The notes: a model not told the origin generated them from the letters alone. DNA of 64,000 nucleotides from Verrucomicrobiia bacterium (GCA_030038175.1 JASHPN010000162.1:2111-66110), one strand, 5' to 3'. Shown: positions 8,980 through 62,610, counted from the first letter of the stretch. Numbers and translations are program-made.

Positions 8980-9252
8980 ATGACAATCGTGTTGAAAAAA
9001 CGAGCCGATGAATTGGCAAGCCGACTTTCTCTAAAGCAACGGATTGAATTTGCTGAGCGACTGATGACCGGTATCGGCAAGTTCGCGAATCCCGAGATCG
9101 AAAAGGTTTGGAACGCCGAGATCAAAAGCCGTCTTGATGAATATCGCGCGGGTAAAGTGAAAACCATCCCGTCGGCGCAGGTTCACGCGGAAATTAAACA
9201 AAGGCTCAATGAAATCCAAACCCGTCGAATATCACCCCGGCGCGCGGCTTGA
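8980..9252 (+). CDS. Addiction-module antitoxin (TIGR02574-like 'addiction module component')
   Basis: 90 aa with SLKQRIEFAERLM...EIEKVWNAEIKSRLDEYRAGKVKTIPSAQV. This matches the E...W..EI.RR..E...G pattern of that small antitoxin family. Confidence 0.65.
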   Translation: MTIVLKKRADELASRLSLKQRIEFAERLMTGIGKFANPEIEKVWNAEIKSRLDEYRAGKVKTIPSAQVHAEIKQRLNEIQTRRISPRRAA

Positions 9253-9285: not shown

Positions 9286-12219
9286 ATGTCTGAAATCCCC
9301 AAAGCCTACGAACCGCGGTCCGTTGAGGACAAATGGTATCAATTCTGGCTGGACGAAAAATTTTTCGTCGCCAATCCGAAATCGCCCAAGCCGGCATATT
9401 CCATCGTGATTCCGCCGCCCAACGTCACCGGCGTGTTGACAATGGGCCACGTGCTCAATAATACCATCCAGGACATCCTGAGTCGCAAAGCGCGCATGGA
9501 TGGAAAGGAGGTCCTTTGGCTGCCCGGCACCGACCACGCGGGGATTGCGACCCAGACGGTCGTGGAGCGGACGCTGAAAAAATCCGGCGAAATCAAGCAT
9601 CGCGACGATCTGGGCCGCGAGAAATTTCTCGAACGCGTCTGGCAATGGAAGGAAAAGCACGGCGGCATTATCATCCAGCAATTGAAAAAACTCGGCGCCT
9701 CGTGCGATTGGTCGCGGGAACGGTTCACGATGGACCCGGAGTACTCCAGGTGCGTCCAAAAAGTCTTCGTGGAGCTTTACGGGAAAGGGCTCATCTATCG
9801 CGACAAACGCATGGTGAACTGGTGCCCCGTCTCACTCACGGCGTTGTCCGATGAAGAAGTCATTATGAAAGAGCAGAAGGGAGCGCTCTATTACTTCAAG
9901 GTGGAAGTTGAAATGGGGAGCGCACCCGCCCCGGGTGCGGTCGAACGCGCCTTGCGTTCAATGTCCTCCGATGAAAAGGTTTTCCTCACCATCGCTACGA
10001 CCCGTCCTGAGACCATTCCGGGCGATACCGCCGTGGCCGTGAATCCCAAAGACCCGCGCTACGCGAAATACATTGGCAAACATGTCGTCCGGCCTTTGCC
10101 GGCGGAATTGCCGCGGGAACAAAAGCTCATTCCCATTATCGGTGACGAGCGCGTGGATTTTGAATTTGGCACCGGCGTTCTCAAAGTCACGCCCGCGCAT
10201 GACAAGGCCGACTTTGAAATTGGCTTGCGCCACAAACTGCCACAGATAGACATCATGCGTCCCAACGGCCACATGAACGAGTTGGCCGGAAAGGATTTGA
10301 ACGGCCTGGATCGGTTCAAGGCGCGCAAGGTCGCCGCCGAAAAACTGGCTGAACTGGGTTTGCTCGAAAAAGAAGAGTCTTATACGAACAACGTCGGTTT
10401 CAGCGAACGCGCGGACGTCCCCATCGAACCGCGATTGAGCGAGCAATGGTTCCTCAAATATCCGAGCGCGGAAAAAGCTCGCAACTGTGTCGAGCAGGGG
10501 AGCGCAGCCGCCTTAGCTGCGTCGGTCGGCGCCTCGCCGACCGAAAAAGTCGAAGCCGGGGCGGCTTCGACCGCACGCGAGACGCGTGCGCTCCCCAAAA
10601 TGAAATTCCATCCCGGTCGCTGGGCAAAAGTGTATGACCATTGGATGGGCGGTTTGCTGGATTGGTGCATCAGCCGCCAGCTTTGGTGGGGACATCGGAT
10701 TCCGGTGTGGTATCGGGCAAGTGAAGTCTATTGCGGTCTGGAAGCACCGGCTGGTCAAGGCTGGCAGCAGGACCCCGACGTTTTGGACACCTGGTTCAGT
10801 TCCTGGCTCTGGCCGTTTGCGACGATGGGGTGGCCGGAACAGACCGAGACATTGAAGAAATTTTATCCGACCACCGACCTCGTCACCGGGCCGGACATTA
10901 TCTTCTTCTGGGTCGCGCGCATGATCATGGCCGGTTACGAGTTCATGCACGAGATGCCGTTCAAGAACGTCTATTTCACCGGCATCATTCGGGACAAGCA
11001 AGGGCGCAAGATGTCCAAGAGCCTGGGCAATTCGCCCGATCCGCTTGAATTGATATCGAAGTACGGCGCGGATGCCTTGCGTTTCGGCGTGATGCGCGCC
11101 GCGCCGCTCGGGCAGGATATTTTGTTCGATGAACAATACGTCGAACTGGGCCGAAATTTCTGCAATAAGCTTTGGAACGCCTGCCGTTTCCGGCAGGTAG
11201 TGGGACAGGCTTCCAGCCTGTCCGGCCCTTCCGGCGCAGAGGCAGGCAGGATGCCTGCCCCACTATACGAGGTTCAGGGCGAAATAGATCCAAAACTGTT
11301 AACGGCGGATGACAAATGGATTTTGCTCAAGCTGGATGCCGCTCTGCGTGAAATCGCCGCGGCCTTCGCCGAATACAAATTCAGCGACGCCACAACCACG
11401 CTCTACCGCTTCTTCTGGAGCGAGTATTGCGATTGGTATGTCGAAGCCAGCAAAGCCGTGTTGCAGGGGAGCGCAGCCGCCCCGGCTGATCCGGTCGGCG
11501 CCTCGCCGACCGAGAAAATCGAAGTCAAGGCGGCTTCGACCGCACGCAAGGCTAATACGATTGCCGTCATTGATTTTGTCTTGTCCCACACGCTGCGCCT
11601 ATTCCATCCGTTCCTGCCATTTATCACTGAAGAACTTTGGCATGGCATGGGTTACAGCGAGGATATGCCGGAAAATCAGGGCGGCAAAACCATCATGTTC
11701 GCCCCCTGTCCCAAACCGTTGGATGATGATTTCAAGTCCTTCTACGGTCTCAGCGAACGGGACGAAAAACTCATCGAAGCGCGCAATGAATTGATTGTTC
11801 AGGGCCGCGACCTGCGCCGCCAGGCCAACCTTCCGGCCAATAAAAAGGTCAAATTCATTTTCAAACCCGCCGGACACGCCGGCGACGCGGAAGTTTTGAA
11901 ACTGCTGCTCAACGCGGAATCAGTTGAGATCAATCCGAATTATCAACCGGCCAAAAGTGTCCTGGCCGTGCACCATGAACTGGGTGATCTATTTTTGCCG
12001 CTGGAAGGCCTGGTGGACGTGGAGGCCGAAAAGAGCCGACTCAAAAAAGAATTGGAAAAGATCGAGAGCGAAATTGCCAAGGTCGAACAAAAGCTGGCGA
12101 ACCCCAATTTTACCCAAAAAGTCCCTCCGGCCGTACTGGACGAGCACAAAAAACGCCTTGCCGACTGGCAATCGAAACGCGAGCATGTCCTGGCCGCGCT
12201 CGCCGCGCTCGGCTTATAG
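9286..12219 (+). CDS. valS: Valine--tRNA ligase
   Basis: PPPNVTGVLTMGHVLNNTIQD (HIGH-type motif), TTRPETIPGDTAVAVNP, DWCISRQLWWGHRIP, KMSKSLGNSPDP, and a C-terminal coiled coil. It carries extra repeat-derived segments (see findings). Confidence 0.95.
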   Translation: MSEIPKAYEPRSVEDKWYQFWLDEKFFVANPKSPKPAYSIVIPPPNVTGVLTMGHVLNNTIQDILSRKARMDGKEVLWLPGTDHAGIATQTVVERTLKKSGEIKHRDDLGREKFLERVWQWKEKHGGIIIQQLKKLGASCDWSRERFTMDPEYSRCVQKVFVELYGKGLIYRDKRMVNWCPVSLTALSDEEVIMKEQKGALYYFKVEVEMGSAPAPGAVERALRSMSSDEKVFLTIATTRPETIPGDTAVAVNPKDPRYAKYIGKHVVRPLPAELPREQKLIPIIGDERVDFEFGTGVLKVTPAHDKADFEIGLRHKLPQIDIMRPNGHMNELAGKDLNGLDRFKARKVAAEKLAELGLLEKEESYTNNVGFSERADVPIEPRLSEQWFLKYPSAEKARNCVEQGSAAALAASVGASPTEKVEAGAASTARETRALPKMKFHPGRWAKVYDHWMGGLLDWCISRQLWWGHRIPVWYRASEVYCGLEAPAGQGWQQDPDVLDTWFSSWLWPFATMGWPEQTETLKKFYPTTDLVTGPDIIFFWVARMIMAGYEFMHEMPFKNVYFTGIIRDKQGRKMSKSLGNSPDPLELISKYGADALRFGVMRAAPLGQDILFDEQYVELGRNFCNKLWNACRFRQVVGQASSLSGPSGAEAGRMPAPLYEVQGEIDPKLLTADDKWILLKLDAALREIAAAFAEYKFSDATTTLYRFFWSEYCDWYVEASKAVLQGSAAAPADPVGASPTEKIEVKAASTARKANTIAVIDFVLSHTLRLFHPFLPFITEELWHGMGYSEDMPENQGGKTIMFAPCPKPLDDDFKSFYGLSERDEKLIEARNELIVQGRDLRRQANLPANKKVKFIFKPAGHAGDAEVLKLLLNAESVEINPNYQPAKSVLAVHHELGDLFLPLEGLVDVEAEKSRLKKELEKIESEIAKVEQKLANPNFTQKVPPAVLDEHKKRLADWQSKREHVLAALAALGL
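9915..9939. repeat. Short palindromic repeat inside valS (family B head)
   Basis: Begins with ggggagcgca, the same 10-mer that heads the elements at 10497 and 11466. It is followed by the hairpin cgcacccg-ccc-cgggtgcg. Confidence 0.5.
10497..10596. repeat. 100-bp palindromic MITE/REP-like element inside valS (family B)
   Basis: Perfect 10-bp terminal inverted repeats: ggggagcgca (10497-10506) and tgcgctcccc (10587-10596). Internal hairpins tcggtcggcg/cgccgaccga and gtcgaagcc/ggcttcgac. Translated in frame as GSAAALAASVGASPTEKVEAGAASTARETRALP. Confidence 0.75.
11197..11268. repeat. 72-bp palindromic element inside valS (related to the 130-bp family C)
   Basis: gtagtggg...cccactat termini. 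Hairpins ggacaggct-tcc-agcctgtcc and ggcagg-at-gcctgcc. Core ggcgcagag is shared with the elements at 12222 and 62462. The element is 24 codons long and in frame (VVGQASSLSGPSGAEAGRMPAPLY). Confidence 0.65.
11466..11547. repeat. Second family B element inside valS (right end degenerate)
   Basis: ggggagcgcagccgcc...ggtcggcgcctcgccgaccga.aaaatcgaag...ggcggcttcgaccgcacgc aligns by eye almost base for base with 10497-10580. Translated as GSAAAPADPVGASPTEKIEVKAASTARK. Confidence 0.7.
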
Positions 12220-12221
12220 AT

Positions 12222-12351
12222 GGCAGGGACATCGCGCTACGATGTCCCCGCCGGCGCAGAGCGGGCGGAACAAACCCGGCGCCGGCACACTGTTCGGGCG
12301 GACGTTGCGCCGCTGAACGCGGCGCGGACGGCGTAGCGCGCCGTCCCTACC
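12222..12351. repeat. 130-bp palindromic intergenic element (family C) just after the valS stop
   Basis: ggcagggacatcgcgctacgatgtcccc ... gccggcgcagagcgg ... ggacggcgtagcgcgccgtccctacc. It has two terminal hairpins and g[ct]agggac/gtccctac termini. A same-length paralogue lies at 62462-62591. Confidence 0.75.
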
Positions 12352-18032: not shown

Positions 18033-18102
18033 GTGGCATTTATACGCAATTTAAATGCCAAGTTGCAAGGGGTTATCGAGGCGGCGAGAATGGAGAAGAG
18101 AC

Positions 18103-18230
18103 CTGCCTCCGCACGAGGCTACGGCAAGGCAGGCCTGCCTCCGCACGAGGCTACGGCAAGGCAAGCCTGCCTCCGCGCAAGGCTACGGCAAGGCACGCCT
18201 GCCTCCGCACAAGGCTACGGCAAGGCAGGG
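18103..18230. repeat. Tandem repeat of 4 x 32 bp; each unit can form a hairpin
   Basis: The unit ctgcctccgcacgaggctacggcaaggcaggc is repeated head to tail, with units starting at 18103, 18135, 18167 and 18199 and a few substitutions. cctgcct/aggcagg form a 7-bp stem in each unit. There are no spacers. Confidence 0.85.
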
Positions 18231-19815: not shown

Positions 19816-21108
19816 CTATTTCTTTCTGATGGCAGCGCTTTGTCCATGCGCATCCAGACCTTCCAGTTCGGCGAATTTCTTCACGGCGGGCAGCGCTCTT
19901 TTGAGCGCGGCGCGGTCGTACTCGACGACGCTGGTGCGGCGCTGGAATTGGTCCACGGTCAGGCCGGCAAAGGACGCGCCGGCGCCGCCGGTGGGCAGCG
20001 TGTGACTGGGACCGGCCACGTAATCGCCCAGGACGGTCGGAGAATATGGACCCAGAAAGATCGCGCCGGCGGTCAGGATTTTTTCGGATACTTTTCGCGC
20101 GTTGCGCGTCATGATTTCGCAATGTTCAGGCGCGAGGTCATTGGCGAGCGCAACAGCGTCGTCCAGCGTTTTGGTTTGGATGAGCCAGCCAGATCGGTCG
20201 AGGCTATTCTGAGCCATGTCGCGGCGGCCGAGTTTGGGCAATTGTTTGGCAATCTCGCTCTCAACGGCCCGGAGAAGTTTTGCCGAGGTGGTCACGAGCC
20301 ACACATGATGTGATTCAAAACTGTGTTCCGCCTGGGCCAGCAGGTCGGCGGCAACAAATTTCGGATTGGCGGTTTCATCGGCGACGATGAGCACTTCGCT
20401 GGGGCCGGGCAGGGAGTCAATGGCCACGCGGCCAAAAAGCAATCGCTTGGCAGTCACGACATAGGCGTTGCCCGGGCCAAAAATCTTCTGCACGCGGCGG
20501 ATGGTTTTTGTCCCGTAGGCCATCGCGGCAATCGCTTGCGCGCCGCCAACTCGATAGATCTCCGTGGTGCCGGCGGCGCGGACGGCGAACAGCAGGGCGG
20601 GATTGATGCCGCCATCTTTTCCGCAGGGCGTGCAAACGACAATGTCCCGGCAACCGGCTGCCCTGGCCAGTGTCACCGTCATCAGCGCCGTGGACACGAG
20701 CGGCGCGGTGCCGCCGGGAATGTAAACGCCCACGCGCTGAAAGGGATCAAATTTTTCGCCGACGCGCGCGCCATGGGAATTTTTGGACTGCCAATTGTGG
20801 CGGAGGGATCTTTTGGCAAACGCGGCAATATTGTGTTCCGCTTCCGCAACGGCGGCGCGGAGACCATCATCCGCTTTGAGCGATGCAGTCACTAATTCAG
20901 CCTGGGTGACCGCAAGCTGGCCGGCGGCAAGCCTGGCTCCGTCGAATTTTTCCGTAAATTCCAAAAGCGCGTCATCGCCGCGAATAAAGACTTCGTGCAG
21001 GATTTGGCGCGTGCGATGTTCGATCTCTTCATCAAACAAACTCGAAGCCGCCGAGGCTTCGCGAACTTTTTCCGAAAAGTTCCGGTCAGTATAGCGGATA
21101 ATGCGCAT
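19816..21108 (-). CDS. hisD: Histidinol dehydrogenase
   Basis: GPGNAYVVTAKRLLFGRVAIDSLPGPSEVLIVADE, DLLAQAEH, YVAGPSHTLPTGG. I prefer the ATG at 21108 (MRIIRY...) to the upstream start at 21144. Confidence 0.9.
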   Translation of the reverse strand: MRIIRYTDRNFSEKVREASAASSLFDEEIEHRTRQILHEVFIRGDDALLEFTEKFDGARLAAGQLAVTQAELVTASLKADDGLRAAVAEAEHNIAAFAKRSLRHNWQSKNSHGARVGEKFDPFQRVGVYIPGGTAPLVSTALMTVTLARAAGCRDIVVCTPCGKDGGINPALLFAVRAAGTTEIYRVGGAQAIAAMAYGTKTIRRVQKIFGPGNAYVVTAKRLLFGRVAIDSLPGPSEVLIVADETANPKFVAADLLAQAEHSFESHHVWLVTTSAKLLRAVESEIAKQLPKLGRRDMAQNSLDRSGWLIQTKTLDDAVALANDLAPEHCEIMTRNARKVSEKILTAGAIFLGPYSPTVLGDYVAGPSHTLPTGGAGASFAGLTVDQFQRRTSVVEYDRAALKRALPAVKKFAELEGLDAHGQSAAIRKK

Positions 21109-21221
21109 TGGCCACAGGGTAGGAAATACGGCAGGCGAAGTCAAAAACGGGCGGGTGGCTTAACGCAAGGGCGCAAAGACAGAATTCATGTCCGGACGAT
21201 CTTTCCTCTCTATGAACCGGG

Positions 21222-21316
21222 CGGAGCGCGGCTGTGTCGGAGACCCGCCGCTGCACACCCGACTTTTCAACACGCTGCGGCTGGCGCCCCCTTTACCCCC
21301 ACACAGCCGCGCTCCG
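21222..21316. repeat. Palindromic intergenic repeat, family A (best-preserved copy)
   Basis: Perfect 16-bp inverted repeat cggagcgcggctgtgt (21222-21237) / acacagccgcgctccg (21301-21316), 63 bp apart, with core ctgcggctgg. Flanked by ttcatg...tctatgaaccgg direct repeats at 21185-21220 and 21327-21368. Confidence 0.8.
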
Positions 21317-21463
21317 GGCGCCCAAGTTCATGGCCCAAAGAATCGGAAGAGGACTTTCTATGAACCGGCGGCGTTTTCGTTTGAACGGCTCTCCCTCATC
21401 CGCCGTCGCCTAGCTATGGCGGGACAGGCCCCTGCCCTCTCCCACTGCAATGCGATGAAAGAT

Positions 21464-22906
21464 CTAATTCGCTGAAATCTTTACAATGGCGGCGGAGGCG
21501 GGCGGGACAGCCAGGACGAATTGGCCGTTTTTATTTGGATGCACAGATGTCCACGTGCCGTTCCATGAGCCGTTATTGCCAATCTCAGCGCCGCCGAGAG
21601 TGACGCCAGTTTTGCTGTCGAGTGTTCCGGTGAGAGACATGACTTCGGCGCTTTTCGCCGGCACATCCGGTACAATTGTCACAGTCGCGGCGCGGGCGGC
21701 CTGGTTGTATTCCTTGTTGATTATCGTCACGAGACATTTATCCGCGTTGCGGACTGCATAGGCGGTCAGATTGAGATTATCGGGATTGGAGATTGTTAGC
21801 GGCGCCACGTTGCCGTGGCTGCCCAAATCGAATGCCTTGATGCCGTAGGCCTTTGGGTTGATGTGACATATTCCGTCGCTGTCCAAATAAACAGTATCGG
21901 TGCGCAACCATTCGTTATTGTGAAAATTGACGCCGGCGCAGCCGTGTTCGGCCCACCAATGCATATAGTCCAAAGCCCAAAGCGCGGACGCAAAGGCGTT
22001 GCTCGCGCCATTTACGCCGCTCAGGTAATCGTTGCACTCGGTCAATCGGTAAGGCAACCCATCGGCAAGGACAGGCGCCAAAGCGTGACCGTATAACGCC
22101 GGATATTCCACGGAAACCCAGCGCGGCGAGAGCATCGCGTTGATGGCGTCCGACATGGAAACATTTTTTGCCTGCCCGCCTGGGTAATCATGTTGACAGA
22201 CGGCACCGATGAGACCGGAAGTTTTTTCATCATCGGCGAAAAGTTGTGTCCAAGATTTGCCCTGGTAATCGGTCTCGCCGGCGCCCTGGACGGGGTAATC
22301 AGAGCCGGTGTCCGGCCCGGCGAATTTCGCCTCGGGCGCCGCCGCGCGGATGACGGTGGCGAAATTTCTCCAGTCAGCGAGGTAGGTGGGATAATTGGTG
22401 ATTCTGGGATCCATGCGATGATACGAACGCCAGTCGGGTTCATTGCCGATGGCAAAACAGTCCAGTTGCGAACGATGTTGCTGCCAGATGTATTTTGCCA
22501 AAGAAGCGTCCACCTGGGGATCGCCGCGAAGCAATCGGAAGGAAAAGATGACCTTCACATTGGCGTCTTTGGCGAAAGCAAAAAGCTGGTCCATGTCGGC
22601 CGGGCCGGGAAGGGGCCGCTTGCTCTTATCCACCGTGCCGCCGCCCACGCGCAGGTTCCTGATTCCCAAGGTCTTAAAAAAACTGATGAGCGGCCGGTTT
22701 GTGGGGCTGAAAAAGTAAAAGGGTTCGTGGCGCGGAATTTTATTTGGATTGGCCAAAATGACGGACGTTTCGAAACTGAGTCCAATAAAATCGTCCGGAA
22801 TGGCGTAACCAGACGCGTTTGAAATAGTCACTGTTACCGGGGAAGCGGCATACAAGGTGGTTGAGACGAGAAAGACGGCGCAAGCAATAAGAAGAAAACG
22901 TTTCAG
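21464..22906 (-). CDS. Secreted glycoside hydrolase, GH79-like (clan GH-A); 5' end uncertain
   Basis: Signal-like KRFLLIACAVFLVSTTLYAASP, FIGLSFETS, LRVGGGTVD, FAIGNEPDW (candidate acid/base Glu), YRLTECNDY (candidate nucleophile Glu). The 632-aa track ORF extends upstream across a repeat and into pyrF, which I consider spurious. The nearest in-frame codon before the signal peptide is a CTG at 22906. Confidence 0.6.
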   Translation of the reverse strand: MKRFLLIACAVFLVSTTLYAASPVTVTISNASGYAIPDDFIGLSFETSVILANPNKIPRHEPFYFFSPTNRPLISFFKTLGIRNLRVGGGTVDKSKRPLPGPADMDQLFAFAKDANVKVIFSFRLLRGDPQVDASLAKYIWQQHRSQLDCFAIGNEPDWRSYHRMDPRITNYPTYLADWRNFATVIRAAAPEAKFAGPDTGSDYPVQGAGETDYQGKSWTQLFADDEKTSGLIGAVCQHDYPGGQAKNVSMSDAINAMLSPRWVSVEYPALYGHALAPVLADGLPYRLTECNDYLSGVNGASNAFASALWALDYMHWWAEHGCAGVNFHNNEWLRTDTVYLDSDGICHINPKAYGIKAFDLGSHGNVAPLTISNPDNLNLTAYAVRNADKCLVTIINKEYNQAARAATVTIVPDVPAKSAEVMSLTGTLDSKTGVTLGGAEIGNNGSWNGTWTSVHPNKNGQFVLAVPPASAAIVKISAN

Positions 22907-22956
22907 GAGAAAGAGGGTCCTGAAGCGCGGTAAACAAGAGACGTCGCTTGCGTCAT

Positions 22957-23073
22957 GGAGTGCGGCGGCTGAGACGCCGCTTTCGGACGCGATTGTTGTT
23001 CCGAAGACACATTGAATCTCGAAGGCTAACCCGCCTCGAAAGCGGCGTCGCGCTGTGCTTGCCGCCGCACTCC
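22957..23073. repeat. 117-bp inverted-repeat element between the GH79-like gene and pyrF
   Basis: Perfect 13-bp arms: ggagtgcggcggc (22957-22969) and gccgccgcactcc (23061-23073). Confidence 0.7.
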
Positions 23074-23173
23074 AAGACCGTGCGGCGGTTTGTACGGTTC
23101 GGATCGTTTTTGGCGCACTCCCAAATGTCAGACTGACTTGTCGCAAGACGGCATTTTGGCGTAGATTGTTTTC

Positions 23174-23878
23174 ATGCGCAATCCAATCATTGTTGCCCTC
23201 GACGCGCCAACCGCGGACGCCGCCCTGGAAATGGCGGCGCAATTGGCTCCGGTCTGCGGCGGGTTCAAGATCGGCAGCGAGCTGTTTACTGCCGCCGGGC
23301 CGGACATCGTCAAAAGAATCCGCGCGCGCGGTTCCTTCGTCTTTCTCGATTTGAAATATCACGACATTCCCAACACGGTGGCCAAGGCGGTGTCAGTGGC
23401 CGTGGGCCTGGATGTGCAGATGCTCACCGTCCACGCGGGCGGCGGCACGGAAATGCTCCGGGCCGCCGAAAAGGCCGCCGAAGAAACCGCCTACAAAATG
23501 GGCCGGGTGCCTCCGCTGGTGCTGGGCGTAACGATATTGACGAGCCTGGACGCCGGCGCATTGCGCGAGGTGGGCCTGGACGTGAATGTCGAATACCAGG
23601 TGCGCCGCCTGGCGAACGTGGCCGTGAAAGCCGGCCTGCGCGGATTGGTTTGTTCGCCGCTGGAAATCGCGGCTTTGCGCAAAACGGTTCCGGCGCAGGT
23701 GCAACTGGTGGTTCCCGGCATCCGCACCGGCGCCGAGAAAGCCGACGACCAAAAACGCACGATGACGCCGCGCGAGGCCATCGCCGCCGGGGCCAACTGG
23801 CTGGTGATCGGCCGGCCAATTTGCGCCGCGGAAAATCCGCGCGCTGCGGCGGAGAAAATTCTGGAAACGCTGAACTAA
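23174..23878 (+). CDS. pyrF: Orotidine-5'-phosphate decarboxylase
   Basis: IIVALDAPT, FKIGSELF, FLDLKYHDIPNTV, LVIGRPI. Confidence 0.9.
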   Translation: MRNPIIVALDAPTADAALEMAAQLAPVCGGFKIGSELFTAAGPDIVKRIRARGSFVFLDLKYHDIPNTVAKAVSVAVGLDVQMLTVHAGGGTEMLRAAEKAAEETAYKMGRVPPLVLGVTILTSLDAGALREVGLDVNVEYQVRRLANVAVKAGLRGLVCSPLEIAALRKTVPAQVQLVVPGIRTGAEKADDQKRTMTPREAIAAGANWLVIGRPICAAENPRAAAEKILETLN

Positions 23879-56181: not shown

Positions 56182-57696
56182 ATGCCTCAGCAACTCATCT
56201 ATACCAGCGCGCCGCGCGGCATTGTCGCCGGGCGGTCGGGCTATTGCACCGTGGCCCGCAGCGCGGCGATGCGGGAGGCGCTCATGATGCAATTGGAAAG
56301 ATTTTCCTATTACCAGCACCTTTCGCTGAGCGGCGGACAGGAACGGCCCATTTTTGCCTGCCGCGTCGTGGACCTTCGCGGCGTCCGTTATCACGTATTG
56401 AGCCGGATTGCGGATGCGGGATTGGACTTTACCGGCCGCACCAACTTCATTGCGCATCACCTCGTATTCGCGCCGGAGGAAATCGCAAAGAATGCGTCGC
56501 CGCCGGCCATTCTGAGCGGCTGGCCGGGCTGGGTCAAATCCTGGACGCGTGAACCGGGTTTGCTCGAAAGTGAGGACTGGGCCGGACTGGCCGCGCTGGC
56601 AGGCAGGCCCAATACAGCGGCGCAAACCTGGCAACGCGTGACCGGTGACGCTCAAAACGGCTACGGTCTGGTGGAAGCGCGGCCCGGGGTAGTGATTAGC
56701 GTTGATCATTTAGCCGATGAAGACGTGCTGAGACTTTTTGCGGAAAGCCTCGAACTTTTGGAAGTTCGCGGACCGCACCGGGACCTGCACGCCGCCCGGT
56801 GGAATTACACTTTCACCACTTCTATGCAGGAACAGGATAATCCGGCGGACTTTCGCTGGCGGTGCATTCATTCGGACAATCCCGCGGCGGCCCGTTTTGC
56901 AACGCCTGATTGCCCCGAACTTTCGTCCATCCGCGCCGGTTATTGCACGAACGAGGAAAGCGCGTTTGCCCGGACGGGACGGCAACCACCTTATTTTGTT
57001 CTCGAACCAAATGACTTGCGCATCGGCGAAGGTGAAAATGCCCGGTTCGTCGCCCGCGCTGAAGGTATTCCCAATCCCGCCTATCAATGGTTTTCCGTGG
57101 ACCGCAATCAGAACGCAAAAATGTTGCCCGGTGAAACGAACCCGGAGTTGGTGGTTTCACGTCCAGTCCTGGGCATATCACGTTACCAGGTCAGCGCTGT
57201 CAACGGTTCCGGCACGGCGCAAAGCAAGGTGGCCGTGTTATCCGTTGAAGCTGCCAAGGGATCTTCCGGGACCAAGGCGACTGGGACTTCTCCGGTTCCG
57301 GCCAAACCGGGCGTCTATAGTGTTCGGCGCGATGAAAGTGGTGAAAGCGGGCGGCAGCGGGAAAGCAAAGCGTCAATGGTGACGGGGACCGGTGTTGGCC
57401 GCTTGCTCACGCGCGCGGCTCTGATTACAGCCGTGCTACTCATAATCGCGGCGCTTGTCGTGCGGCACCATTTGTTGTCATCCCGAATGTCCGCACCGGC
57501 AACATCAAAAAGCACGGCGGCGAACAATGCCAAAACAAATGCCGCCGCACTCCCAGGCGCCATGCCGCAGAAAACCGCAAATCTGAAACCGCCTCCGCCC
57601 ACTCTTTTCAATACGGCTAATATCGCATCCACCAACAATATCCGCACCAAAATCTATGCCGGCGGGCCAATGACGAATCCGGAGTCGCAAAAATGA
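56182..57696 (+). CDS. GAP1-N2-like N-terminal domain protein with Ig-like domain and a single C-terminal TM
   Basis: The N-terminus MPQQLIYTSAPRGIVAGRSGYCTVARS resembles the QL.YTS....G..G.SG[FY] start I associate with GTPase-associated protein 1 N-terminal domain type 2. PPYFVLEPNDLRIGEGENARFVARAEGIPNPAYQWF...YQVSAVNGSGTAQSKVAVLSV looks I-set Ig-like. The TM segment is LLTRAALITAVLLIIAALVV. ATGA overlap with the next gene. Confidence 0.6.
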   Translation: MPQQLIYTSAPRGIVAGRSGYCTVARSAAMREALMMQLERFSYYQHLSLSGGQERPIFACRVVDLRGVRYHVLSRIADAGLDFTGRTNFIAHHLVFAPEEIAKNASPPAILSGWPGWVKSWTREPGLLESEDWAGLAALAGRPNTAAQTWQRVTGDAQNGYGLVEARPGVVISVDHLADEDVLRLFAESLELLEVRGPHRDLHAARWNYTFTTSMQEQDNPADFRWRCIHSDNPAAARFATPDCPELSSIRAGYCTNEESAFARTGRQPPYFVLEPNDLRIGEGENARFVARAEGIPNPAYQWFSVDRNQNAKMLPGETNPELVVSRPVLGISRYQVSAVNGSGTAQSKVAVLSVEAAKGSSGTKATGTSPVPAKPGVYSVRRDESGESGRQRESKASMVTGTGVGRLLTRAALITAVLLIIAALVVRHHLLSSRMSAPATSKSTAANNAKTNAAALPGAMPQKTANLKPPPPTLFNTANIASTNNIRTKIYAGGPMTNPESQK

Positions 57697-60356
57697 GCGA
57701 GCCAGCCGAATCCCTTTACGCCACGTATCGCCGAGCCGTATTGAACCGCAACGACGAGGAGGCGCTCGGGATATTGCGCTCGATCGTTCGCGCAAATCCA
57801 TCGGACGCCAATGCGGCGGCCGAATTGGAGCGGCTCGACGCAAAAGTTTTGGCCGCGCGCCTGCGACATTTGGACGGTTCGGTGGAGGGAGGCGATGCGC
57901 GGCTCGTGGTGGCGGAAGTGGAGGCCATAGAAACTTTCGGGTTCAAAGCCCGGCCTGAAGGCGACGGCTGGCGCAAAGCCCAAACGATCCGCTGCGAGGT
58001 CCTGGTTGCGGATATCGCCGGACTGAAAACACAATCCCGCTGGTCGGACGCGCTGGTAAAAATAGATTTAATCCATCGGCTGCAAAAGAAATTTAAGCTC
58101 GAATTACCGGCCGGCAAGCAATTGGAAGGGCTTGAGGCCTGGGCGCGGGGTGAAAAAGAAAAGGACGCGCAGGAACGCGCGTTCCAGGCCCTCCTTTCGG
58201 AATTGCAGGTCCGCATCCAAAAGAGCGAAGAGAAGGACACGTCGGCGCGTTACGTGGAACTGCCGGAATTGCGGGATGATTACGAAGGGTTGCACAAGGT
58301 TTGGCGTTCGCTGACGGATTTTTCCCGTCCGATCCCGCCCGAGGCCATGGCCGCCTTTAAAAAGCGGTCGGCGCTGCTGGAAGCGGAAATCTACCGGCGC
58401 AATGCCATCCAAAGGCGGATCATCGTTGCGGCCGGGGTGACCGTCCTGATTGTGGTAGCGGCCATTGCCTGGGCGGGAGCCAGGGCAATGAGGGCGCATA
58501 ATTTTGCCCGTGAACTCCGAGCGGCGATCGCACAAAGGCAGGTTCACACAGCGGAAAATCTAATCGCCGACGGGCACAATAAGAATATCGGCAGCGCAGA
58601 TCTGCTCGCCGACGCCGGGACTTTTGTCGAAAGAGAAAATCTTCTGCTCACAAATTTTGAGTCGGCGCTTGCGGAATTGCCGCGGGAATTTCCCGACCAT
58701 CCGAACGCAGCCGGTTTGGATGCCGTCGCCGACGAATTCTCTTTGGCGCGCAATGCTTTGAACGCGCTTGCGCCGGACCTGAAAATAGAAAATGAACCGC
58801 GTGTTGCGGCATTTGAGCAGAATTGGCAAAACTACCTGGCCCAAAGCAGCGGAGCGGTGAACGACCTGTTGGCACAATGGATAGCCTCCGCCGAAAAGGA
58901 ATGCGATGCCCTCGATTACAATGCCCCGCTGGCCAAAACGCGAAACCAACTCGCCGCCCTTTCCGATTTGGTCCAAAAAATCAGCGATAACGCGGCGGGA
59001 TTCGGAAAAAACCTCCAGTTAAGGAGCGATTTGCTGGCTCGCCTGGCAACCGTGCGTGATAAGGCCGCCGGCTATCAGGCCGAACTGGACAAAGTGGATG
59101 GCGGACTGGCGGCAATCCAGCGAGCCAGGACCATCGGCGAATTTTCCCAGGGGATTAACCTGATCGCTTCCTCGGAGTTTTTGTCAGCGTCCGCGGTCGC
59201 CGGCGCAGCGGCTATTCAATCCCTGGACGTTAACGAAGAAACCACCCTGCGGTATCTGCTCAACGCCACCAATGCGAGCACCTGGGCCTATATCCAAAAA
59301 CAGCAGGCGGCGGATTTTATTCCGGAGGCGGTCATGCCTGCCGAACGGCAAATCCTGCGGAACCTGGCCAAAGATCCCACGGTGAGCGCAAACCATCTGC
59401 ATTACCACTTTTGGCTGGACAGCCAGGGTGAGAATTTTATCGAGTGGATCACCGCCGGGCCATTGGATACGAGCACCGGGTGGAAGACCATTTCCGCCTG
59501 GACGGTCTCGCCGGCCGCCGGCAGCGCGGTTTTCTCGGACCACGAGTACGGCTATTTCGACGGCCAATATAAACTCACCCCAACGGAACCAATCCTCCAC
59601 GTGAACCAATCCGGTTCATCAGACGAAACTGCGGCGTTTCATTCCATCGGCCTGGAAAAGGTTTTAGCGGGCGACAATGCGTATTCGAAACCCCTGCTGG
59701 AAGTCCTCGATTCGCTGAAAAACTCAGAGGATGGCTCGCCGCTTTTTCGAGCCTATCTTTTTTGGCACCTAACGGATCTAATGAACCTCCAACCGGACGC
59801 CTGGGGCGTCAGTTTCTGTCCGGCGCTCGTGGCCGATGAGGGCCGGCTTGGGACAATTGTGAACGGGGATTTGAACGACGGCGATTGGTTTGTGCCATCA
59901 AAAGTCTCTGCTTATGGCAAGCCGTTGGAACAATTTTTTGCCGGGGCCAGGGCGGTCATATATCAAAAACAGGCGAATGGGCTGTTGGCATTGGCGCAGG
60001 CGGTCTCAAAGAATGGGCTCCGCTATGCGGGTTATTGGGGGATGGACGGCCAGCCTCATTTGATTGGGGCAACCGTTCCGCAGGAGTTTTGGGCTTATAG
60101 CGTTGCCTTAAAAGAGCCGATATTGTTAACAACCTTGGAACTGGAACACGGCGTTTATGCGGATTCCGCGTCAACTTTGCAAGCGACGGTGAAGCGGTCC
60201 CGCCCCCTGCGGGACCGCGCTCCCGTGATGCCGCTCTCCCCGCTTTTCACCACGGCGCTATCACGCAAAGAATATATGGCAAACGCGGGAGTCAATCCGG
60301 ACGATCCTTCTTTCAAAAATGCTTTGCCGCCGTTCTTTCAAAATCCAACCCGCTAA
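57693..60356 (+). CDS. 887-aa single-pass membrane protein (helical N-terminal ~235 aa, TM, ~620-aa C-terminal region)
   Basis: Translationally coupled to both neighbours. TM segment RRIIVAAGVTVLIVVAAIAWAGA. I recognise no family motif. Confidence 0.6.
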   Translation: MSEPAESLYATYRRAVLNRNDEEALGILRSIVRANPSDANAAAELERLDAKVLAARLRHLDGSVEGGDARLVVAEVEAIETFGFKARPEGDGWRKAQTIRCEVLVADIAGLKTQSRWSDALVKIDLIHRLQKKFKLELPAGKQLEGLEAWARGEKEKDAQERAFQALLSELQVRIQKSEEKDTSARYVELPELRDDYEGLHKVWRSLTDFSRPIPPEAMAAFKKRSALLEAEIYRRNAIQRRIIVAAGVTVLIVVAAIAWAGARAMRAHNFARELRAAIAQRQVHTAENLIADGHNKNIGSADLLADAGTFVERENLLLTNFESALAELPREFPDHPNAAGLDAVADEFSLARNALNALAPDLKIENEPRVAAFEQNWQNYLAQSSGAVNDLLAQWIASAEKECDALDYNAPLAKTRNQLAALSDLVQKISDNAAGFGKNLQLRSDLLARLATVRDKAAGYQAELDKVDGGLAAIQRARTIGEFSQGINLIASSEFLSASAVAGAAAIQSLDVNEETTLRYLLNATNASTWAYIQKQQAADFIPEAVMPAERQILRNLAKDPTVSANHLHYHFWLDSQGENFIEWITAGPLDTSTGWKTISAWTVSPAAGSAVFSDHEYGYFDGQYKLTPTEPILHVNQSGSSDETAAFHSIGLEKVLAGDNAYSKPLLEVLDSLKNSEDGSPLFRAYLFWHLTDLMNLQPDAWGVSFCPALVADEGRLGTIVNGDLNDGDWFVPSKVSAYGKPLEQFFAGARAVIYQKQANGLLALAQAVSKNGLRYAGYWGMDGQPHLIGATVPQEFWAYSVALKEPILLTTLELEHGVYADSASTLQATVKRSRPLRDRAPVMPLSPLFTTALSRKEYMANAGVNPDDPSFKNALPPFFQNPTR

Positions 60357-62425: not shown

Positions 62426-62461
62426 TTTGAAATGAACCTGCCACAACCATATGTCGATTTT

Positions 62462-62591
62462 GGTAGGAACGACGCGCTGCGTCGTCCGCGCCGCGCAGAG
62501 CGGCGCAACCGATTACCAAACATTCTTCCGATCAATGACAATCTTTCCACCCGCTTTACGGGCGGGGACATCGCAGCGCGATGTCCCTACC
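62462..62591. repeat. 130-bp palindromic element (family C) inserted between two operon genes
   Basis: ggtaggaacgacgcgctgcgtcgtcc ... gcgcagagcgg ... ggggacatcgcagcgcgatgtccctacc. Same length, termini and core as 12222-12351. The wider insert 62442-62610 is flanked by a 10-bp direct repeat atgaacctgc. Confidence 0.8.
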
Positions 62592-62610
62592 AAATTGACT
62601 ACGATATCCG

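Follow-up and report, generated by a model that had tools for sequence, protein, structure and literature searches.

The stretch of DNA analyzed here, referred to below as the window, comprises 64,000 nucleotides (nt) of one strand from a Verrucomicrobiia bacterium (GCA_030038175.1, JASHPN010000162.1:2111-66110) and contains the gene valS, encoding valyl-tRNA synthetase (ValRS), whose coding sequence carries four hairpin-rich segments that we name S1 to S4. These are the four DNA stretches that a first-pass annotation, made from the sequence by itself, had described as repeat-like and in frame; all four were found again, and the reading frame 9286-12219 indeed stays open across them. The product matches the Thermus thermophilus ValRS structure 1GAX with an E value of 3.6e-192 and has the full ValRS Pfam architecture (tRNA-synt_1, Anticodon_1 and Val_tRNA-synt_C). 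The host gene and its four segments are as follows, where REP stands for repetitive extragenic palindrome and REPIN for REP doublet forming hairpin:

9286..12219, + strand: valS coding sequence, the host gene; 977 amino acids (aa) in one open frame, with TMGH and KMSKS motifs
9915..9978, + strand: S1, degenerate truncated element of the GGGGAGCGC family, encoding GSAPAPGAVERALRSMSSDEK (aa 211-231)
10497..10596, + strand: S2, complete 100-nt element, encoding GSAAALAASVGASPTEKVEAGAASTARETRALP
11197..11268, + strand: S3, 72-nt REPIN-like inverted pair of GTAG-headed hairpins, encoding VVGQASSLSGPSGAEAGRMPAPLY
11466..11547, + strand: S4, second copy of the S2 family without the right-hand hairpin and terminus, encoding GSAAAPADPVGASPTEKIEVKAASTAR

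The complete element, S2, is bounded by 10-nt terminal inverted repeats, GGGGAGCGCA and TGCGCTCCCC, that are perfect (10/10), and as single-stranded DNA it is predicted to fold into a four-hairpin cloverleaf closed by these termini (-46.8 kcal/mol, z -7.4). The 100 bp and the perfect terminal repeats of the first-pass annotation therefore stand, its two internal hairpins becoming four. S4, which had been called a near-duplicate of the element at 10497, is one (80% identity over 107 nt; fold z -3.2), apart from its missing right terminus. S1 shows the head and the hairpin that had been placed at 9915-9939, namely GGGGAGCGCA (9915-9924) and, at 9921-9939, an 8-bp hairpin that is perfect, and runs further than had been thought, to about 9978, with a second, weaker 6-bp hairpin at 9943-9959. 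It has no right terminus (DNA fold z -3.7), and it is classed as degenerate from its head and hairpins only, its alignment to the S1 element of the orthologue locus L004 being ambiguous. S3 has the 72 bp and the two hairpins ascribed to it, both perfect (11203-11223 and 11241-11259; z -5.7), with termini TAGTGGG/CCCACTA, GTAG at 11197-11200 and GTATAG on the other arm; its arms, 11197-11223 and 11241-11268, have the inverted-pair layout of a REPIN. Its proposed link to an intergenic ‘family C’ through a GGCGCAGAG ‘core’ did not hold up, since at least two matches to this core, as seen in S3 and in the intergenic element at 12253, also arose in 14 of 100 shuffles, which is not significant alone. 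The tie of S3 to that family would instead rest on a common architecture, whereby in S3 and in two intergenic elements (12222-12351 and 62459-62594) a GTAG-type hairpin is followed a few bases on by GCGCAGAG.

Two families are present in valS, namely a GGGGAGCGC-headed multi-hairpin family (S2 complete, S4 minus its right end, S1 decayed) and a GTAG-headed inverted-hairpin family (S3). [quoted passage not shown] Perfect stems of 8-10 bp start at 9921, 10522, 10549, 10572, 11203, 11241 and 11492, whereas folding in three control pieces of valS did not exceed that of shuffled sequence (z -0.2 to +0.6). The GGGGAGCGCA 10-mer occurs four times in 64 kb, compared with 0.32 expected, each time in valS (9915, 10497, 10587 on the reverse strand, and 11466), and of the approximately 19 distinct perfect hairpins that reach 8 bp or more in the window, 7 fall within this gene, which makes up 4.6% of the window's length. 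A known RNA family was rejected as the identity of the elements, as Rfam gave sub-threshold matches only (sroE and mir-2996).

The segments were next compared with an orthologue set consisting of the 120 best ValS relatives (70-80% identical overall; 888 to 1195 aa) from Limisphaerales and other Verrucomicrobiota assemblies, in which a site was counted as occupied when it held at least 7 extra residues. The alignment with 1GAX is broken at query residues ~211-231 (S1, a 20-residue gap in 1GAX), 407-438 (S2), ~639-662 (S3) and 729-749 (S4), and the MAFFT alignment of the relatives placed much of their length variation at the same four sites, with most of the remainder in a fifth region at ~476-495. 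Occupied sites numbered 50 for S1, 85 for S2, 76 for S3 and 87 for S4. Insert-free short forms are present in many relatives, such as EAPGTF at S1 (70/120) and ADGK at S2, and in the relatives closest to the query (~90% core identity), S1 is empty and S2 and S4 are mostly so. At the DNA level, all four sites are insert-free in L003 (protein P0022), and the S3 site is so in both L003 and L004. The 1GAX gaps and the insert-free sites in protein and DNA show the segments to be absent from orthologues in the manner of Rickettsia palindromic elements (RPEs), and they bear out the lineage-specific insertion that the first-pass annotation had put forward.

The fifth hypervariable region (window ~10711-10770, residues 476-495) ranges from 20 to 202 residues in the 120 orthologues. 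The query has its shortest form, with one Cys compared with four in the aligned stretch of the T. thermophilus ValRS. We also observed a domain of ~180 aa matching Pfam LPD3 (PF18798) in the ValS proteins P0099 (L004 11240-11815), P0023, P0059, P0063, P0071 and P0102; it occupies 182 residues at S2 in P0099, and a similar segment lies within the fifth variable region in P0059. Not only repeat elements but also folded domains are thus accommodated by these loops.

Copies of both families were found well beyond the window. In orthologue DNA, the S2/S4 family is present at S2 of L001 and L005, at S4 of L002 and L010 and at S1 of L004, the last being a full GGGGAGCGC-family element of 106 nt and those at S4 of L002 and L010 being full copies with both termini; the S3 family is present at S1 and S3 of L002 and inside ileS of L045. 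Identity among full-length copies is 74-95% and does not track the site: S2 of L001 and S4 of L010 are 95% identical, and the window S2 is 91% identical to S2 of L001. Such independence from site is more easily reconciled with copies drawn from one shared mobile pool than with site-by-site vertical inheritance. A scan of representative genomes with a 22-nt core gave 17 matches, six of them in Verrucomicrobia, one per genome, and located in valS (one), hisS (two), a large haem-binding protein (two) and either upstream of a gene or right at its start (one). The remaining 11 matches, isolated in GC-rich genomes, were set aside as probably due to chance, the six that were inspected having no element head.

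The exact 23-nt head was found in at least 120 metagenome contigs. A crude open reading frame (ORF) test on 121 metagenome copies found 54 without and 53 with a long ORF across them, so that roughly half look intergenic. A 146-nt form is common among the metagenome copies, and many of those without a spanning ORF are of this form and nested in a further inverted repeat. This outer repeat, AACGATGCAGTTG...CAACTGCATCGTT, flanks many 146-nt GGGGAGCGC copies (for example, L133, L105, L037 and L025), which suggests a larger composite element or nested insertion. Pfam-verified genes carrying copies encode HrpB, IleRS, Hsp70, a Ser/Thr kinase, an Eco57I-type methylase, GcpE, PriA, HemB, an AMP-binding enzyme and HisRS; as with RPEs, the elements thus lie in frame in unrelated ORFs, those of ValRS and at least 10 unrelated genes. 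As a separate observation, the ileS gene of L045 (1631-4633) contains both valS families, with the GGGGAGCGC head and GTRGTGGGRCAGGC at 2871-2884. The S2/S4 type, termed family B in the first-pass annotation, had been taken there for an intergenic family of the window; no intergenic copy lies in the window, and such copies were seen only in other genomes and metagenomes.

A gap-free alignment was obtained for seven 100-nt copies, which come from different genes and samples. When they were projected on the S2 fold, 96% of cells were paired and 14 of the 40 pairs had changed on both sides, compared with 27-46% of cells paired when the partner was slid by 1-3 columns; none of 500 shuffles reached the observed score. 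The compensatory changes in the stems alter the encoded peptide, and what is conserved is the nucleic-acid fold and not the peptide. Strong self-complementarity was also found in nine orthologue inserts that belong to several other families and occupy these ValS sites (fold z -2.4 to -9.7). The compensatory changes, together with the copies at other ValS sites, in at least 10 unrelated genes and in contigs without a spanning ORF, support the repeat-element origin proposed in the first-pass annotation.

These findings bear on the possibility that ordinary loop expansion or low-complexity sequence, specific to the lineage and only by chance GC-rich and self-complementary, accounts for the segments without any relation to mobile DNA. 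Aminoacyl-tRNA synthetases accumulate idiosyncratic insertions, the insert peptides are low in complexity and rich in Ala, Gly and Ser, and the window has no other family B copy, all of which would suit such an origin. Loop expansion would, however, leave unexplained a DNA element that is 80-95% identical at other ValS sites, in unrelated genes and in contigs without a spanning ORF, pairing that is kept via two-sided changes altering the peptide, and the perfect 10-nt terminal inverted repeats of S2. Given that metagenome copies, covariation and genic copies already largely refute it, we consider this possibility extremely improbable.

With respect to the reading frame, nine of the ten copies in Pfam-verified genes are read in the Gly-Ser-Ala...Ala-Leu-Pro frame, in either orientation. 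Of the six frames in which the S2 element can be read, four contain no stop codon. Across the 120 ValS, Ala, Gly, Ser, Thr and Pro together make up 58.6% of insert residues, compared with 28.2% in the ValS core, and Trp, Tyr, Met, Ile and Phe are depleted. Judging from frame use and composition, the inserts are apparently translated as flexible loops; a tryptic peptide predicted to cross an insert junction would be, for example, ...CVEQGSAAALAASVGASPTEK. Alternatively, the elements might be absent from the mature enzyme owing to intron-like removal, translational bypass or intein-like excision, and very stable hairpins could indeed stall or redirect ribosomes. Yet every copy found within a verified gene is in frame and stop-free, the removal of an element before translation would impose no such preference for one frame, and the insert composition looks selected for harmless residues, which together make absence from the enzyme highly improbable. 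An intein or self-splicing intron in particular was rejected, given the size of the inserts (64-100 nt, or 21-33 residues, far too short for an intein), the strong frame preference and the absence of any Rfam family above threshold.

The position of the inserts in the protein was approached through orthologue lengths and structures. In orthologues, the sites hold from a few to ~60 residues, or 182 in the one with a whole domain, and lie between conserved blocks. In an AlphaFold model of poor quality, which served for secondary-structure context only, all four segments are modelled as coil: S1 between strands 197-209 and 232-238, S2 between helices 395-402 and 443-455, S3 between helices 616-645 and 674-695, and S4 between helices 699-727 and 741-776. 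The match to the isolated editing-domain structures 1WKA and 1WK9 starts at query residue 232, corresponding to chain residue 17, which would put S1 within the first few residues of the editing-domain construct. Based on length tolerance, linker-like composition and the coil assignment in the poor model, it is plausible that the inserts occupy tolerated surface loops, and their surface exposure is likely.

The inserts also turn over between closely similar proteins. Among ValS pairs at least 95% identical in their core, we counted 105 cases of insert presence/absence or of unrelated inserts at the same site. In the one pair for which the DNA was compared, P0012/P0033 (98.5% identical in protein core, 93% in nucleotides), the S2 elements have common termini, GGAGCGCC...GGCGCTCC, with different hairpins inside, and duplications and short repeat expansions differ at S1 and S4. 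DNA-level comparison of inserts was used instead of single-linkage clustering of insert peptides, which was discarded because low complexity and included flanks yielded one large cluster.

Insert-free sites may hint at the targets. The S4 site of L003 (12011-12026) reads GGGGAGTGACGCCGCC and is 13/16 identical to the element head GGGGAGCGCAGCCGCC (window 11466-11481), and the right junction of the window S4 falls in GCACGC, beside native-like sequence. Such a head-like site may help explain why S4 was hit, or how its right end was lost, and is a lead rather than a result. At S2, the insert-free GGCC compared with the occupied GG-GGAGC...GCTCC-CC corresponds to a net gain of 96 nt, and the junctions of this one site are compatible with a GGAGCGC...GCGCTCC unit inserted in a GG/CC target. 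Both insert-free sites may reflect target mimicry or microhomology-aided insertion.

The resemblance of the insert-free S4 to the element head, the right junction and missing right terminus of the window S4, and the confinement of all window copies of the family to valS would also be expected if only one transposition had occurred, with S4 and perhaps S1 derived from S2 by ectopic recombination or gene conversion, helped by head-like native valS sequence. The orthologues speak otherwise: full copies occupy S4 of L002 and L010 and S1 of L004, the S2 sites of L002 and L004 hold a different element and a protein domain, respectively, and the window S4 is nearer to S4 of L002 (86%) than to the window S2 (80%). 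A single transposition is, in our view, clearly unlikely.

Another question is whether the inserts are kept because they are useful, either as mRNA hairpins tuning the translation or decay of valS or as loops altering the binding of tRNA or of partners. The occupation of the same four sites in 50-87 of the 120 orthologues, the maintenance of hairpins by compensatory change even within a gene and the fact that no insert-free S2 was seen in the clade with the S2 flank CVEQ/CVEL could all be taken in its favor. On the other hand, ValS proteins with a core identity of 95% or more differ in whether a given site is occupied, or hold unrelated elements there; in the window, decay or truncation has affected S1 and S4; no conservation is seen in the peptide, and many unrelated proteins contain these elements; and hairpin conservation may reflect recent descent from copies selected for transposition. 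Usefulness therefore appears very unlikely as the reason for their retention.

We accordingly favor, with a probability of roughly 0.85, the interpretation that each of the four segments is a copy of a small non-autonomous palindromic element (REP/REPIN or MITE type), inserted in the valS gene of a Limisphaerales (Verrucomicrobiota) bacterium and kept in frame. It is directly supported by insertion relative to orthologues, repeat-family membership, fold conservation, frame bias and recurrence at four sites; the transposition mechanism, the translation and neutrality of the inserts and their surface location are what we infer. Spread would occur at the DNA level, presumably through single-strand hairpins on which a transposase encoded elsewhere acts in trans. 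In an essential gene, insertions would survive only if their length were a multiple of three, if they offered a stop-free frame encoding small hydrophilic residues and if they fell at a fold-neutral loop position. Surviving inserts would be translated as loops rich in Ala, Gly, Ser, Thr and Pro, and would later decay, gain or lose internal hairpins, or give way to related elements with the same termini.

Several observations weigh against this interpretation. No copy of the GGGGAGCGC family was found outside valS within the 64-kb window, and as the genome scan gave one match per representative genome, it does not demonstrate a high copy number in the genome that the window comes from. No target-site duplication or direct repeat flanks the genic or intergenic copies that were examined, and no transposase ORF was recognised in the inspected stretch 20800-23400, no systematic search for REP-associated tyrosine transposases (RAYTs) having been run. 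The AlphaFold model, built with 50 close orthologues, had a mean predicted local distance difference test score of 56 and a predicted template modelling score of 0.39. Finally, the orthologues were taken from protein predictions, which leaves genes disrupted by an insertion unsampled.

A more specific and rather unlikely extension of insertion by mobile palindromes is that the four ValS loops are sites of continuing targeted exchange, at which REP-type elements home to coding sequence mimicking their termini and are then swapped. The swaps would proceed by recombination between the common GGAGCGC...GCGCTCC ends, the cues being the insert-free S4 sequence and the GG/CC of S2. If so, essential enzymes across a bacterial order would carry hypervariable surface cassettes, possibly affecting valS mRNA or the enzyme.

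Irrespective of such exchange, the valS locus illustrates how selfish DNA can lengthen an essential and ancient enzyme without breaking it, with four elements of two families in one gene. The insert-free, occupied and decayed states found in more than 100 orthologues amount to a natural experiment on the insertion-tolerant loops of a class I aminoacyl-tRNA synthetase, bearing also on the question of which frames a palindrome can be read in without harm and on the pace of insert turnover. For annotation, length variation of Limisphaerales ValS is partly due to repeat elements at four sites and partly to the fifth region and inserted domains, and the Gly-Ser-Ala...Ala-Leu-Pro peptides of many verrucomicrobial proteins have the same repeat-element origin.

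Outside valS, the window contains two REPIN-like elements, both intergenic, without an assigned strand:

12222..12351, no strand: element immediately downstream of valS; inverted pair of GTAGGGAC-type hairpins spaced 66 nt apart; z -3.6
62459..62594, no strand: second element, of the GTAGG(G/A)AC type, with arms 68 nt apart

Both have the GTAG head of REPs, with GTAGGGAC at 12343-12350 and at 62583-62590, on the reverse strand in each case, and the element at 12222-12351 belongs to the same general class as S3. A further candidate lies at 60194-60218, near the C-terminal end of the 887-aa ORF 57693-60356, where a perfect 10-bp hairpin, GCGGTCCCGC...GCGGGACCGC, is followed by GCTCCC. This single GGGAGCGC-headed unit on the reverse strand encodes ...KRSRPLRDRAP... 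and may be a fifth in-frame element of the window, read in a different frame. Two palindromic elements that belong to other families are located at 21222-21316 (intergenic) and 22952-23078 (upstream of the probable start of the gene 21464-23362), with terminal inverted repeats of 19 nt and 18 nt that are 95% and 94% complementary, respectively. At 18102-18229, an apparently intergenic stretch consists of four head-to-tail 32-nt units, CCTGCCTCCGCACGAGGCTACGGCAAGGCAGG, with complementary ends CCTGCC/GGCAGG. Upstream of valS, the gap to a leuA-like gene is variable (window 8981-9252; L002 1948-2801; L004 9129-9988) and holds a PIN-domain toxin pair in relatives; in the window it contains a small ORF that is antitoxin-like by eye (MTIVLKKRADELASRLSLKQRIEFAERL...), with no obvious partner.

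Compared with known systems, the valS elements do not reveal a new kind of system. RPEs (Ogata 2000 Science 290:347; 2002 Genome Res 12:808; reviewed in PMC10969869) are ~100-150 bp elements of AT-rich genomes that lie in frame in unrelated genes and have a conserved peptide per family. For the RPE in the guanylate kinase of Rickettsia conorii, the enzyme has reportedly been compared biochemically with and without its insert. RPEs resemble the valS elements in being short palindromes in frame in unrelated, often essential genes, in being absent from orthologues, in occurring also in non-coding DNA and in encoding peptides thought to sit where the fold is undisturbed. The valS elements differ in that they come from another phylum, with no sequence relationship expected, and are GC-rich and multi-hairpin; in that their stems co-vary and their peptide is therefore not conserved; and in that one gene has four of them, the same four loops being hit repeatedly across more than 100 orthologues.

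Closer in phylogeny are the intragenic REPs of the GTAG/CGTC scheme. Di Nocera et al. 2013 described REPs located within ORFs, as monomers or inverted dimers that encode 7-30 residues (PMC3733652). Most intragenic GTAG REPs were in the verrucomicrobium Opitutus terrae, and REPs were also found in tRNA synthetase genes of other species (PMC3733652); valS is not among the genes in Additional file 3 of that paper. S3 and the elements at 12222 and 62459 resemble these in being GTAG-headed inverted hairpin pairs, whereas the family of S1, S2 and S4 has a GGGGAG head and four hairpins closed by 10-nt terminal repeats, and recurrent use of the same sites with turnover across orthologues is not described in PMC3733652. 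S3 and both intergenic elements likewise share the layout of REPINs, in which two inverted REP hairpins and a short spacer form a mobile unit mobilised by RAYTs (Bertels and Rainey 2011, PMC3116915). REPINs are, however, described as extragenic, whereas S3 lies within valS. Finally, the valS elements resemble bacterial MITEs (Correia, ERIC, Nezha and others; reviewed in PMC10969869) in being small, in having terminal inverted repeats and no transposase gene of their own and in occasional in-frame fusion with host ORFs; they differ from them in that no target-site duplication was detected at genic or intergenic copies, in that no parent insertion sequence with matching ends came to light, although no search aimed at one was made, and in that internal hairpins vary while the termini stay constant.

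A literature search found no description of such in-frame insertions in Limisphaerales. In-frame insertion of palindromes is already known, for example, from Rickettsia and Opitutus, and it recurs often in this lineage. What is added over the known cases is a GGGGAG-headed four-hairpin family outside the GTAG/CGTC scheme, the presence of four elements in a single essential gene and the reuse of the same four loops across a bacterial order.

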